NCBI GenBank assembly: GCA_022897995.1
Contig: GCA_022897995.1_4763.1
DNA: 64,000 bases
Direction: 5' to 3' (one strand)
Origin: a phage
The position numbers and the translations under genes are program-made. The notes beneath the pieces are model-generated. The model ran no database searches and was not told where the DNA came from. It worked only from the letters and a program-made list of their open reading frames with translations. Below, in pieces: positions 31,408-35,405 of the stretch; position 1 is the first letter of the stretch, and every line of letters starts with the position of its first letter.

Positions 31408-31443
31408 AAATAAGGCTTGATAGAAACAAAAGAGGATGATATT

Positions 31444-31629
31444 ATGGTTAAAGTTAATTTGTCAGACGGTGCAAAATGGGTAGTTGACAGAATCCCAGAT
31501 AAGGATTATAATCATTTCCGTGCCGAATTAAACAATGCTATTCTGCGAGTTATGGAGAAATACGGGTATGATCGTGAAGTATCTAGCTCGTTTGATGAGT
31601 CTGTTGTTGTGAGAGTGGAGAGAACTTAA
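31444..31629 (+). CDS. Hypothetical protein
   Basis: 61 aa from ATG 31444 with RBS AAGAGGA; track ORF starts at an upstream TTG. Confidence 0.35.
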   Translation: MVKVNLSDGAKWVVDRIPDKDYNHFRAELNNAILRVMEKYGYDREVSSSFDESVVVRVERT

Positions 31630-31631
31630 TT

Positions 31632-32579
31632 ATGACGTATAACCCGTTTACAAAAACTACCGCTACACTTAATGATTTTTTTGATGACCCAGAAGATAAA
31701 CTGCCGGAAGGTGTGCATTTGATTGATATGTCGCAGCTTATGATTGCTACTATCTCTCATACATTTAAGCCGGAAGATCCGATTAATGAAGGTATGATCC
31801 GTCATCTTATCCTTGACACCATGCGTTATAATATGACAAAATTCAAAGAGCAATACCCGATTACGGTACTTGCCTTTGACTCTAGCAAAGGTTACTGGCG
31901 ACGTGATATCGCACCTTATTACAAGCGTAACCGTAAGGAAAAGCGAGACGCAGATCCGCGTGATTGGGATATGATCTTTGCGGCGATCAATAAGATCACC
32001 GAAGAGTTTAAAGAGAACATGCCTTATCACGTTATTAAGGTTGACAAAGTTGAAGCGGATGATATAATCGCTGTGTTAACTAAAAAGTTTTCTGTAGAAG
32101 GTCGCCAGGTGCTAATCAACTCCGGCGATGGTGACTACACACAGTTACACAAATACAAAAATGTGAAACAGTGGGCGCCAGTACAGAAAGCATGGAAGAA
32201 GTGCAAATATGGTAGCCCATACAAAGACCTTATGGTAAAATGTGTTAAGGGTGACGCAAAAGACGGTGTAGCCTCTGTCAAATGTCGTAGTGATTTTATT
32301 ATCTCTCGACTGGAAGGGGAACGGGCTAAACCAGTTGCAACCAAATGGTTAGAGCAAATTTTCGATGCCGAAGATCCAAAGTCTTTGATGACAGAGGAAG
32401 AAGCACGACGCTTTGACGAAAACCGCGAACTTATTGATTTTGAATTTATTCCTGATAACATTGAGTATGAAATTTTGTTAGCATGGGAAAAATCTAAACC
32501 AGCACCACGCGGTAAAATTTATAACTATTTTGTAACAAATGCGTTAGTTAAAATGTTGCAGAAAATTGGTGAGTTCTAA
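31632..32579 (+). CDS. rnh: RNase H / 5'-3' flap exonuclease (T4 rnh homolog)
   Basis: 315 aa; FEN-family acidic blocks (LIDMSQL, VLAFDS, EADDIIAVL, INSGDGD); position before dsbA as in T4. Confidence 0.85.
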   Translation: MTYNPFTKTTATLNDFFDDPEDKLPEGVHLIDMSQLMIATISHTFKPEDPINEGMIRHLILDTMRYNMTKFKEQYPITVLAFDSSKGYWRRDIAPYYKRNRKEKRDADPRDWDMIFAAINKITEEFKENMPYHVIKVDKVEADDIIAVLTKKFSVEGRQVLINSGDGDYTQLHKYKNVKQWAPVQKAWKKCKYGSPYKDLMVKCVKGDAKDGVASVKCRSDFIISRLEGERAKPVATKWLEQIFDAEDPKSLMTEEEARRFDENRELIDFEFIPDNIEYEILLAWEKSKPAPRGKIYNYFVTNALVKMLQKIGEF

Positions 32580-32589
32580 GGGTTGACAC

Positions 32590-33186
32590 ATGAAAGAACT
32601 TGAATTAAAATACTATGCACACTCACAGGAAGGTGTAGAAACAATCCATGATGTGTGGGTAGCAATGTATGACGGGTACAATCTCGTAGACCGTGATAAC
32701 ATACTAAAACACGAATTTTATTATGATACAGAAGACCATGCATTACGCAAAAAAGGAATTTATGCACGACTTGACGTTTACAGGTCATTGGTCATGGTAA
32801 AAATTGGCGATAGTGAATCGGGACTCTTCAACCGAGAAGAAATTACTTTTTCAACAATGGATGATTTCTATCATTATGTTGATAGTCTGGGCGTTAACTC
32901 CGACCTTATTGTGCCTTTACTGCAAATAATGACACATCGCAAGTCATTGACTCTAGATATGGGTTGTGGTATAGTGGAAATGTGCAAAGACACTTTCTAT
33001 TATCGCAAAGTAGGCGAAAGAATGGGCGACGCTCACTATGAAATTGAGTTCGAGTTAAAATCGGGTGATGAAAAAGCACTTGACATTATCCGAGAAATGA
33101 TGCTAGAATATGTAGGTGATGACTTACGTCCTAGCGAAATATCAAAAGCTGAACGTGGTTTTCAATTAATGACTAAAGAGGGTTAA
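32590..33186 (+). CDS. CYTH-like domain protein (triphosphate tunnel metalloenzyme / CyaB-like fold)
   Basis: 198 aa; N-terminal ELELK (ExExK) motif, later HYEIEFELK, alternating charged beta-strand pattern; inserted between rnh and dsbA. Confidence 0.5.
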   Translation: MKELELKYYAHSQEGVETIHDVWVAMYDGYNLVDRDNILKHEFYYDTEDHALRKKGIYARLDVYRSLVMVKIGDSESGLFNREEITFSTMDDFYHYVDSLGVNSDLIVPLLQIMTHRKSLTLDMGCGIVEMCKDTFYYRKVGERMGDAHYEIEFELKSGDEKALDIIREMMLEYVGDDLRPSEISKAERGFQLMTKEG

Positions 33187-33190
33187 TATT

Positions 33191-33466
33191 ATGGCTGAAC
33201 AGAAAAAAGAAAAAGTAGTATTTGATGAAGCAGTACACGGAAATACCCTGGCACAACTGATTAAAGAAGCCAGCGATCAGAAAACCATTCAAGAAGCATA
33301 TGGCGATAAGATCAAAGAGATCAAACAGCGTGCTAAAGAAGAATTAGGCGTAGATGGTAAAATGTGGGGCATTCTGTTTAAACTGTATCACCAGCAACAG
33401 CGCGAAACCTTCGAAGCAGAACGCGACGAAGCGGTAGAACTCTATGATCGGGTGTTCAATGCTTAA
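33191..33466 (+). CDS. dsbA: Late-transcription dsDNA-binding protein DsbA-like
   Basis: 91 aa; position and size as T4 dsbA; blocks VVFDEAVHG, LIKEASD, AKEELGVDGKM, AVELYD match as recalled. Confidence 0.55.
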   Translation: MAEQKKEKVVFDEAVHGNTLAQLIKEASDQKTIQEAYGDKIKEIKQRAKEELGVDGKMWGILFKLYHQQQRETFEAERDEAVELYDRVFNA

Positions 33467-33713
33467 TGAACATGCGGTAAAAGCCGCGAATAAAACAGCA
33501 AACGGTCTTGCAATCGAAAAACTGGTTGTTGAAGAGGGATTGACTTATCTTGAAGCGACAACGCAGTTTGTAGAGGAAAACTCTATAGAATATGGTCACT
33601 ATCAGAAATATATTCCTGTGTCCATTATTGACAAGATCACACAAGAATGTATAGTAAATAGAACGCTCAGGAAGGGAGTGATCGACGAACCGACCAACAC
33701 TCTCGATATTTAA
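33459..33713 (+). CDS. 33: Putative late transcription coactivator gp33-like
   Basis: 84 aa from ATG 33459 overlapping dsbA end; assigned by position between dsbA and 59 only. Confidence 0.4.
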   Translation: MLNEHAVKAANKTANGLAIEKLVVEEGLTYLEATTQFVEENSIEYGHYQKYIPVSIIDKITQECIVNRTLRKGVIDEPTNTLDI

Positions 33714-33722
33714 GGGGTATGT

Positions 33723-34403
33723 ATGATCAGAAACCGTCTTCCTCCAGATCCAGATATGCGAATTAATGCTAAATCTGTGTATATGTTATATTGCATGATG
33801 AAAGCTCATATGAACGGGCGTTATGATTGCGTAAAATATAATTGGAGGATGCGGTTATCTGATGCCGCATTCAATAAACGCAGAGATAAGTATTATTTCG
33901 CAAAATTAGCGGAAAAGTACAATCTAAGAGAATTATACTTCCTATTCCTAAGCAATCTGGTAGCTAATACCGATGCATGGGTAGGTGAAATCACTGATGT
34001 TGACGCATACGGCTTTTATATGGAATACATAGGAAAGATAACCGATGCAGCAACAAGATTTGACGATGACGTTAAAAGTCTGGTATACTTCTCAGAGAAA
34101 CGCGGGGTTACTCTTAAAGAGCTAATTACATACAATCCCGCAACCGAAACTAGCGGTATATTTAAACTACTGCAAAATCGGATTATATCGTTTGAGTCGT
34201 TTATGTTGTTAGATAGCTTTCTAAATATAATCGACGAACACGACAAGGTAGCCAAAGACTTGATTTGGCAAACTTATAGTGTTAAAATGAAGGCGTACAA
34301 GAAACTACTTGTTATTGACGCCGCAAAAGCAAGAGCATTATTTGTTAAAGTAGTTAAAGAGTGTAAAGAAATATCTCAATTAAAAGCCGAAACAAATAGT
34401 TGA
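33723..34403 (+). CDS. 59: Helicase loader gp59
   Basis: 226 aa; blocks KSVYMLYCMMKAHMNGRYD, KYNWRMRLSDAAFNKRRDKYYF, LSNLVANTDAWVGEI, LLDSFLNIIDEHD match T4 gp59 as recalled. Confidence 0.85.
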   Translation: MIRNRLPPDPDMRINAKSVYMLYCMMKAHMNGRYDCVKYNWRMRLSDAAFNKRRDKYYFAKLAEKYNLRELYFLFLSNLVANTDAWVGEITDVDAYGFYMEYIGKITDAATRFDDDVKSLVYFSEKRGVTLKELITYNPATETSGIFKLLQNRIISFESFMLLDSFLNIIDEHDKVAKDLIWQTYSVKMKAYKKLLVIDAAKARALFVKVVKECKEISQLKAETNS

Positions 34404-34427
34404 CAAGTAAACTTAAATCTGTATAAT
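34400..34427 (+). promoter_or_regulatory. Strong promoter for gene 32 (TTGACA, 16 nt spacer, extended -10 TGTATAAT)
   Basis: TTGACA 34400-34405, TG at 34420-34421, TATAAT 34422-34427; overlaps the end of gene 59. Confidence 0.55.
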
Positions 34428-34463
34428 AGTCTAGTAAATTAATCAAAAGAAGGAATAGTGAAT

Positions 34464-35405
34464 ATGTTTAAACGCCAAGATTCTTCCAAACTGCAAGCTC
34501 AACTGGCCGCACTGAAAGGTGGCAACGGTTTCTCCAAAGAAGATCCGAAAGAGTGGAAGATTAAGACTGATGCAGCAGGTAACGGTGAAGCCCTGATTCG
34601 CTTCCTGCCGTCTAAGACAGAAGACGGTCTGCCGATTGTGAAACTGGTAAACCATTCCTTCAAAGTTAATGGAAAATGGTATTGGGAAAACTGCTCCAGC
34701 ACCCACGGTGATTTTGATTCTTGCCCTGTGTGCAAATATATTAACGAAAAAGACCTGTACAATACCGATAAAACAGAATGGCAACTGATTAAGCGTAAAG
34801 CGTCTTACTACGCAAACATTCTGGTACTGAAAGATCCTCAAGCACCAGAAAATGAAGGTAAGGTATTCAAATTCCGCTTCGGTCAGAAAATTTATGATAA
34901 GATCGTTGCGATGGTGAACGTGAATACCGACATGGGCGAAGTTCCGGTAGATGTAACTTGTGTGTTCTCTGGCGCTAACTTCCTCCTGAAAGCTAAGAAG
35001 GTTGATAAACACCAGAACTATGATGATTCTCGTTTCATGCAGCAATCACAGCTTCCGAAAATTGAAGACGAAGCATATCAGAAATATCTGATGGAAAACA
35101 TGGTTGATCTGGGTGAAATTGTAGCACCGAGCCAGTTTAAACCGTTTGATGAACTGGAAACCAAATTTAAGAAAACTATGGGCGTGTCTATGGTAGCGGG
35201 TGCTGCGGCTTCCAGTGCTGCGGCAGCGATTAACAGCCAGCTTGACGATTTTGATGCTCAGATGAATGCATTCGATGCTGGTATTACCGCAGCTAGCACG
35301 GCGGCAGATTCTTCCGCTGATGACCTGATGGCATCGCTGGATCTGGGTGGCGGTACTTCCTCCGCTTCTGATCTGGATGACCTGGATTCTCTGTTAGCGA
35401 TGTAA
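34464..35405 (+). CDS. 32: Single-stranded DNA-binding protein gp32
   Basis: 313 aa from ATG 34464; MFKRQ..., LIRFLPSK, zinc ligands in [13 protein letters not shown], acidic Ser/Asp-rich C-terminus; matches T4 gp32. Confidence 0.9.

Follow-up and report, generated by a model that had tools for sequence, protein, structure and literature searches.

A 198-codon gene located between rnh and dsbA in a 64-kb stretch of phage DNA (contig GCA_022897995.1_4763.1; the whole stretch is referred to here as the window) encodes a protein that, as judged from its sequence and from a predicted structure, consists of a lone CYTH/triphosphate tunnel (TTM) domain, of the YgiF-like branch found in bacteria, and has no CHAD domain. 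The reading that we favour, and to which we assign a probability of roughly three in four, is that this protein acts as a hydrolase-type TTM enzyme, i.e., as a YgiF-like two-metal triphosphatase. The window is a Krischvirus (RB49-like coliphage) genome, and the gene (hereafter the CYTH gene) combines a tunnel whose lining is invariant with an exterior that changes rapidly and is exchanged by recombination.

Family assignment and predicted fold

The open reading frame (ORF) listing of the window gives an ATG-started ORF of 198 amino acids plus a stop codon at 32590-33186 on the plus strand. The encoded protein begins with MKELELK, which places an ExExK motif at residues 3-7, and carries an EIEFELK block at residues 151-157; the same ORF, with the same start and the same block, had been described in an earlier reading made from the sequence alone (the original prediction), which had also proposed a CYTH-like identity. 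This identity was borne out by profile comparisons. Pfam CYTH (PF01928) matched the single sequence with 27.7 bits (gathering score 23.2; E=2.9e-6), aligning residues 1-190 with positions 1-178 of the 179 positions of the model, i.e., end to end. A profile built from 15 family members and compared with PDB had YgiF as its sole match (E=0.004), with the whole tunnel domain aligned, and a profile-profile comparison (hhalign) with 30 bacterial CYTH proteins gave a probability of 99.8% (E=1e-27).

Structure prediction, which the original prediction had named as a check, yielded the triphosphate tunnel fold rather than an unrelated one. The AlphaFold2 model obtained from the family alignment (predicted local distance difference test score, pLDDT, 87.6; predicted template modelling score, pTM, 0.80) has eight main strands and a C-terminal helix at residues 186-196, and the eight-stranded antiparallel β-barrel tunnel shut by a C-terminal helix, for which the model was examined, is present in it. 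A Foldseek comparison with PDB ranked YgiF first (5a60; E=8e-12, TM 0.77), followed by 47 TTM-fold matches, which included BH2851, SaTTM, thiamine triphosphatase (ThTPase), AtTTM3, a class IV cyclase, VTC, Med18/20, and the triphosphatases of capping enzymes. YgiF is hence the nearest relative both by sequence and by fold.

With regard to domain architecture, YgiF (PDB 5a60/5a61) is a CYTH-CHAD inorganic triphosphatase, whereas the phage protein, with only ~21-23% identity to YgiF, consists of the tunnel domain without the polyphosphate-binding CHAD domain; a Pfam scan gave no CHAD match, and the protein stops at residue 198, directly past the tunnel domain. In its domain-only architecture and its size, the phage protein resembles the stand-alone CYTH proteins of bacteria and archaea (~200 amino acids; e.g., BH2851 [PDB 2gfg], NeuTTM, and SaTTM), which are its nearest cellular relatives. 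Scans of the protein against NCBIfam and PADLOC gave no meaningful match.

Conservation of the predicted two-metal site

The roles of the tunnel residues in YgiF and AtTTM3 have been defined through structures and mutants (Martinez et al. 2015, PMC4641920). In these enzymes, metal 1 is coordinated by the substrate and Glu160 (YgiF numbering), and metal 2, which activates the water for its attack, by Glu4, Glu6, and Glu162; catalysis depends on Arg56 of YgiF, while mutation of the adjacent second Arg in AtTTM3 has little effect (PMC4641920). Correspondences with the phage protein were taken from alignments to YgiF and to bacterial CYTH proteins (Table 1). Across the phage family (alignment A1), E3, E5, K7, R60, K71, R82, E84, R117, D134, E151, E153, E155, K157, K186, and R189 are invariant, and E130 is kept in at least 90% of the members; the invariant residues coincide with columns that are conserved among the bacterial relatives. 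Besides Tyr58, which is considered below, the tunnel has a family-specific aromatic lining made up of Y9, F80, F136, and Y138.

Hydrolase or cyclase

The original prediction had offered a triphosphatase and a CyaB-type cyclase side by side; the first of these is favoured by our data, and the second fails on three sequence determinants. As a class IV (CyaB-type) adenylyl or nucleotidyl cyclase, the phage protein would form cyclic AMP or another cyclic nucleotide and would thereby reprogramme CRP-dependent regulation in the host or disturb defence signalling by cyclic nucleotides. The phage protein does have its superfamily and its tunnel fold in common with class IV cyclases such as Aeromonas CyaB and YpAC-IV (PDB 2fjt and 3n10). 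True class IV cyclases, however, carry the motif HFxxxxExExK, a small residue in place of the first Arg of the RxR strand, and Ala in place of the second Glu of the ExE motif in β8 (Vogt et al. 2021, PMC8233210). In the phage protein only Met and Lys stand ahead of ExExK, which begins at residue 3, so that HFxxxxExExK is impossible; the first Arg is kept as R60, as judged by MAFFT, by hhalign, and by motif spacing; and the second Glu of ExE is kept and invariant (E153-F-E155). The cyclase reading was rejected on these three published motif criteria (no HF motif, R60 kept, and E155 kept). In addition, no cyclase activity was detectable for YgiF, the closest relative (PMC3440374), and the class IV cyclase ranked well below YgiF in the Foldseek comparison. 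We consider a cyclase to be very unlikely, and the phage protein carries every element of a two-metal hydrolase but no part of the cyclase signature.

Proposed mechanism and substrate

The comparisons above show the fold, match the residues with those of known enzymes, and exclude the cyclase signature; the chemistry is carried over by analogy from characterised relatives. By this analogy, the enzyme would be a Mg2+/Mn2+-dependent two-metal hydrolase that grips the triphosphate of its substrate in the β-barrel tunnel through K7, R60, K71, R82, R117, and K186/R189. Metal 1 would be bound via E153, while metal 2, bound by E3, E5, and E155, would activate a water molecule for attack on the terminal (γ) phosphate; R60 would serve as the catalytic arginine, and the products would be a diphosphate compound and orthophosphate. 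The default substrate, taken from the closest characterised relative, would be tripolyphosphate (PPPi). YgiF is a specific tripolyphosphatase (PPPase) that has no cyclase activity and does not hydrolyse ATP, GTP, or ITP (PMC3440374).

The strand that carries the catalytic Arg differs from its counterparts in characterised enzymes. At the position of the small residue of the YgiF-type motif, small-x-R-x-R, the phage protein has Tyr58, and in place of the second Arg it has Asp62, so that this motif is lacking. ThTPases have an aromatic residue two positions ahead of the first Arg (W/YxRxR; PMC8233210), and the mammalian 25-kDa ThTPase (PDB 3bhd and 5a64) has both Arg residues of this motif, whereas the phage protein shows the aromatic residue (Y58) and the first Arg (R60) with Asp62 at the second, i.e., Y-x-R-x-D, and is less similar to ThTPase overall than to YgiF. 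Because Y-x-R-x-D replaces small-x-R-x-R and because CHAD is absent, the substrate may differ from plain tripolyphosphate; Tyr58, placed where ThTPases have their stacking aromatic residue, and Asp62 both point to a change of substrate, which may be an organic triphosphate.

A number of observations weigh against the assignment as a YgiF-like triphosphatase. The Pfam score of the single sequence is only modestly above its threshold. The HMMER alignment to YgiF puts Tyr58, not Arg60, at the position of the catalytic Arg; under this register the protein would lack the catalytic Arg, and its action as a hydrolase would be in doubt. The combination of an aromatic residue at position 58 with the charge reversal at D62 was never seen in the bacterial relatives examined, and it is therefore unsafe to carry the strict PPPi specificity of YgiF over to the phage protein. 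Moreover, a plain PPPase offers a phage no obvious benefit, as host PPPase is ample; the bulk PPPase activity of E. coli is that of inorganic pyrophosphatase (PMC3440374). That a redundant phage PPPase is not obviously useful is one of the reasons why PPPi is taken here as no more than a default substrate. The gene is also split by a frameshift in one isolate (G2494), which would be compatible with dispensability, and literature searches on the function of phage CYTH/TTM proteins yielded no functional study, only table entries and one general remark on jumbo phages.

The HMMER register was rejected, as it is contradicted by MAFFT, by hhalign, and by the spacing of motifs. Both MAFFT and hhalign align Arg60 with the catalytic Arg. 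In all 26 bacterial relatives with both motifs, the first Arg follows the invariant Asp of YxD at a distance of 14, just as R60 follows D46 in the phage protein, whereas the hairpin that comes next varies in length (10, 13, or 17 residues in the relatives and 11 in the phage protein); the MAFFT/hhalign register was chosen because the distance from Asp to Arg is fixed while the hairpin length varies. None of the 26 bacterial relatives scored has an aromatic residue at the Tyr58 position, unlike the phage clade, and in a few of them the second Arg is absent too, the strand reading R-V-E or R-I-Q.

One alternative substrate is RNA. As an RNA 5'-triphosphatase, the phage protein would strip the γ phosphate from 5'-ppp transcripts and so channel host mRNAs into decay by RppH and RNase E, or would adjust phage RNAs or primers at their 5' ends. 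The TTM superfamily contains RNA triphosphatases of the Cet1 type and of viral capping enzymes, which gave significant fold matches; the gene lies amid genes for RNA and DNA processing and for transcription (rnh, dsbA, and 33), and no E. coli enzyme has yet been named for the conversion of ppp-RNA to pp-RNA (PMC8565310), so that a downstream pathway would be ready. RNA triphosphatase structures and profiles (Cet1-like and viral capping-enzyme) were not closer to the phage protein than small-molecule TTMs, and we regard this function as quite improbable.

A conserved tunnel within a recombining exterior

The CYTH gene contains a hypervariable mosaic patch (Table 1). At the DNA level, the flanks are 93-100% identical to phage Skers; identity falls to 42-68% from ~32600 to 33020 and recovers within the last 50 codons. 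Nucleotide diversity among ten other krischvirus alleles is 0.09-0.13 in the patch and mostly 0.01-0.05 outside. Between the window and Skers, the CYTH proteins are 58.6% identical, as compared to 96-100% for RNase H, DsbA, and gp33; between the window and the distant metagenomic loci L005-L007 (see below), the corresponding values are 33-48% for CYTH and 69-81% for DsbA and gp33. Pairwise ratios of non-synonymous to synonymous substitution rates (dN/dS; Nei-Gojobori method, 10 krischvirus alleles) are 0.24-0.28 for the CYTH gene and 0.27-0.32 for its codons 1-150, as compared to 0.00-0.08 for rnh, dsbA, gp33, and gp59, and dS of the CYTH gene is raised as well (~0.33 versus 0.06-0.16 in the neighbours). 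These ratios indicate that purifying selection still acts on the gene. Since dS is raised along with dN/dS, the pattern is one of old, recombining alleles rather than only of fast amino acid change, and the patch appears to hold older allele lineages that recombination has carried from phage to phage. The data do not demonstrate positive selection, as dN/dS is 0.24-0.32 and dS is raised too. A dN/dS of ~0.25-0.3, together with a reading frame and motifs that are kept in homologues down to ~33% identity, also identifies the ORF as a real gene rather than a chance reading frame.

Two further observations concern the origin and the extent of the mosaic pattern. Shuffling of PeSL cassettes, which were defined in RB49 and phi1 as an intergenic AT-rich region with a sigma-70 promoter and a GGGG...CCCC stem-loop flanking a variable ORF (Arbiol et al. 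2010, PMC2839356), was considered as the origin of the patch, since promoter-like motifs on either side of it recall this model, and was rejected as unproven: the motifs here are located within genes, not between them, and the plus strand showed neither a terminator nor a stem-loop between 31300 and 34500. A second, smaller patch of divergence lies in the 3' part of rnh, where identity to Skers is 0.62 at 32420-32479 and krischvirus nucleotide diversity reaches 0.10 at 32452-32541, as compared to 0.01-0.05 in the remainder of rnh; this suggests that mosaic exchange also reaches the C-terminal end of RNase H.

Within the predicted fold, the invariant strand positions are distributed unevenly: 29 of the 45 inward-facing positions are invariant, versus 5 of the 45 that face outward (Fisher p=2e-7), and within the variable patch the counts are 21/36 and 1/36, respectively. 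As known catalytic residues served to set which positions count as inward-facing, 8 of the 29 are invariant by construction; the contrast stays large without them. The most variable parts of the fold are its two N-terminal helices. A conserved tunnel in a fast-changing exterior is compatible with an active enzyme that has a surface either under weak constraint or under change driven by conflict.

This pattern bears on three further readings. If the phage protein were a catalytically inert CYTH-fold protein, i.e., a binding or sponge protein or a decaying remnant, then the loss of the second Arg (D62), the frameshifted copy in one isolate, and a constraint weaker than that on the neighbours would be accounted for; however, the metal ligands and the catalytic Arg are all invariant down to ~33% identity, the tunnel-lining positions are selectively conserved, dN/dS of the gene is well below 1, and the gene is kept in 59/59 genomes, which makes inertness extremely unlikely. 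A nucleotide-directed triphosphatase that acts in the conflict with the host, with a signal or a toxic molecule (a modified (d)NTP or an alarmone-type compound) as its target and a surface that escapes host sensors or inhibitors, would agree with Tyr58 at the place where ThTPases stack the organic moiety, with D62 in place of a phosphate-binding Arg, with the additional aromatic lining of the tunnel, with a dN/dS 3-10 times that of the neighbours plus allele replacement around an invariant tunnel, and with the status of the gene as a lineage-specific accessory; CYTH triphosphatases have also been proposed as modifiers of nucleotide pools in jumbo phages (PMC7824862). On the other hand, YgiF leaves ATP, GTP, and ITP unhydrolysed (PMC3440374), dN/dS is below 1 and relaxed constraint with recombination explains the pattern equally well, and neither a PADLOC match nor a link in the literature was found; we thus judge this reading to be unlikely. 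The part in host or defence nucleotide signalling that the original prediction had suggested is speculative.

A broader proposal, speculative and of low probability, is that the gene encodes a host-takeover or counter-defence factor, whose tunnel would strip the γ phosphate from a specific organic triphosphate (a nucleotide signal, a toxic nucleotide, or RNA 5' ends), with a specificity created by Tyr58 and Asp62 and with the recombining exterior as the trace of an arms race against a sensor or an inhibitor of the host. If this were true with 5'-ppp RNA as substrate, the protein would be a first example from a bacterial virus of the 'missing' ppp-to-pp RNA step upstream of RppH.

Distribution and prior annotation

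By tblastn, the CYTH gene was found in 59/59 krischvirus records and in no other phage records, with identities of 82-92% (58% for Skers). The window allele is a distinct variant of RB49ORF244c/phi1 ORF245 and its krischvirus orthologues, which represent the same gene at the same locus with 82-92% protein identity; the closest database record is 91.9% identical to the window allele, and metagenomic proteins reach 99%. Record labels are mostly 'hypothetical protein', with a few reading 'adenylate cyclase' or 'inorganic triphosphatase'. The RB49 record notes RB49ORF244c as 'similar to ... HI1598, ygiF', and a CYTH Pfam match (E=0.0026) was tabulated for this ORF by Nolan et al. 2006; the likeness to CYTH and YgiF has hence been in the public record since 2003-2006, and the domain identity is not new.

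A search of 1.84 billion representative proteins gave close members (E=1e-101 and 6e-75), two distant ones (1e-30 and 3e-15), and cellular CYTH proteins at 1e-13 or weaker; 30/30 of the cellular relatives tested carry Pfam CYTH (E of 1e-13 to 1e-4 in the exhaustive search). The phage family thus appears as an isolated branch. Its most distant members (P0043, P0044, and P0045) are encoded on short metagenomic contigs (loci L005-L007), and in each of these the gene lies directly upstream of dsbA and gp33; rnh precedes it in L005, the sole distant contig that extends upstream. A tblastn search with P0044 and P0045 over 50,697 phage records returned krischviruses only, and a pattern scan of IMG/VR returned only two near-identical loci. 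Because the distant relatives share the position beside dsbA and gp33, the gene must have long been established here, in a clade that is wider than the krischviruses and mostly uncultured. Recent acquisition from a host was rejected in view of the 21-23% identity to YgiF, the phage-like composition (G+C content of 0.38 versus 0.41 for the window), and the synteny in distant relatives.

In MK327935.1 (vB_EcoM_G2494), the CYTH gene is represented by two annotated ORFs at 146593-147185, and the 593-nt match falls into two pieces in a frameshift-like manner. A truncated form of 130 amino acids (P0035) was also found in metagenomes and in BFVD (A0A482GBZ4). The split gene and the short form are either products of sequencing error or a sign of dispensability.

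Locus, neighbouring genes, and expression signals

The 3.1-kb region around the CYTH gene is 95-96% identical to SSG23, JSE, RB49, and GEC-3S. The gene starts 10 nt past the rnh stop codon and ends 4 nt ahead of the dsbA start. In T4, rnh and dsbA are adjacent, with a gap of 8 nt and no gene between them, in line with the original prediction that the gene stands outside the T4 rnh-dsbA-33-59-32 block; its description as inserted holds relative to T4, but not within the RB49 clade and its uncultured relatives, where the gene is an old resident and not a recent insertion. Coordinates of the gene, its motifs, and its neighbours are given in Table 1.

Table 1. Features of the CYTH gene and its surroundings in the window. 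A1 is the alignment of the phage family; promoter motifs are predicted matches to the sigma-70 consensus, scored out of 12.
Feature	Position	Strand	Remarks
CYTH/TTM protein gene	32590-33186	+	Orthologue of RB49ORF244c / phi1 ORF245
Shine-Dalgarno-like AAGGG, putative	32578-32582	+	7 nt 5' of ATG; overlaps rnh stop codon; read from sequence
ExExK codons (E3-L-E5-L-K7)	32596-32610	+	Invariant in A1 and A2; equivalents of E3 and E5 in YgiF are Glu4 and Glu6 (metal site 2)
Y58-A-R60-L-D62 codons	32761-32775	+	Family-specific version of the 'small-x-R-x-R' strand; all three residues invariant in A1
K71 to R82-E-E84 codons	32800-32841	+	Basic/acidic tunnel residues, β4 and β5; invariant in A1, at least 90% in A2 and A3
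R117 to E130-x-C-x-D134 codons	32938-32991	+	Tunnel residues, β6 and β7; conserved in A1, A2, and A3
E151-I-E153-F-E155-L-K157 codons	33040-33060	+	Intact ExE; E153 corresponds to YgiF Glu160 (metal 1), E155 to Glu162 (metal 2); invariant
S185-K-A-E-R189-G190 codons	33142-33159	+	SKxxRG of C-terminal (plug) helix; aligns with YgiF SKAARG and bacterial SKaeRG
Hypervariable mosaic patch, codons ~11-150	32620-33040	+	Low identity to Skers, high diversity, raised dS
Sigma-70-like motif TTGACA-N17-TAAAAT	32583-32611	+	11/12; overlaps start codon and ExExK codons
Sigma-70-like motif TTGACA-N18-TAGAAT, extended -10 TG	33080-33109	+	11/12; in conserved 3' end of ORF, placed to drive dsbA-33-59
rnh (T4 RNase H)	31632-32579		PF09293/PF02739 (Pfam and PHROG scans)
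dsbA	33191-33466		PF11126 (Pfam and PHROG scans)
gp33	33444-33713		PF16805 (Pfam and PHROG scans)
gp59	33723-34403		Pfam and PHROG scans
gp32	34458-35405		Pfam and PHROG scans

With regard to expression, sigma-70-like motifs are frequent on the plus strand between 31300 and 34500 (24 observed versus 10.5 +/- 3.3 in shuffled sequences), and three of them score 12/12: one at 31484 (in the ORF at 31417-31629), one at 32041 (in rnh), and one at 34400. From the motifs at 31484 and 32041, early transcripts could run through the CYTH gene, which would probably be co-transcribed early with the rnh-dsbA-33-59-32 replication/transcription cluster. Two 11/12 motifs bracket the variable patch (Table 1). 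The downstream motif is the same in 11/11 of the krischvirus sequences aligned, except that Skers has one substitution in its -10 hexamer, and strong promoter-like motifs also lie just 5' of dsbA, at other positions, in L006 and L007; because of this conservation and of the similar motifs upstream of dsbA in distant loci, an embedded dsbA promoter is suggested. The -10-like hexamer of the upstream motif is made by the ExExK codons (GAA TTA AAA TA), and TTGACA is also found directly 5' of the CYTH ATG in L005 (~1880) and L006 (~25); this motif may be a coincidence or an internal promoter.

A number of observations were made on other parts of the locus. Between gene 34 and rnh lies a 70-amino-acid ORF (31417-31629, plus strand) that belongs to a PHROG of unknown function (phrog_3594) and has no Pfam match; krischviruses have kept it, as RB49ORF246c, and the distant locus L005 has it too. 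The gp32 ORF as called begins with GTG at 34458 (MNMFKRQ...), and ATG at 34464, two codons on, would give MFKRQ...; judged by the N-terminus of T4 gp32, we take the latter to be the likelier start. The gp59-gp32 junction (34404-34480; L001 5802-6398; L002 1910-2542) is a hotspot with a nucleotide diversity of 0.25-0.29, which contains an HNH homing endonuclease in Skers, SegG in T4, and an extra ORF in Cognac. In the window it consists of a 54-nt spacer only, with a perfect sigma-70 consensus (TTGACA-N16-TATAAT) at 34400-34427.

Implications

The CYTH gene is a lineage-specific accessory gene of RB49-like phages, and its product is an uncharacterised member of a known enzyme family rather than a new kind of system. 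It is mildly interesting for the Y-x-R-x-D variant of the substrate strand, for its fixed place beside replication and late-transcription genes, and for the combination of an invariant tunnel with a fast-changing, recombining exterior; together, these features make the gene a fair candidate for a function in host interaction. CYTH/TTM enzymes are widespread, and to our knowledge their physiological roles are mostly unknown, with the role of E. coli YgiF unclear too. One small gene in culturable phages of an E. coli host would represent a tractable system in which to study the in vivo role of a TTM enzyme and the place of triphosphates in phage-host conflict; on present evidence, the gene is a reasonable candidate for a screen and no surprise.

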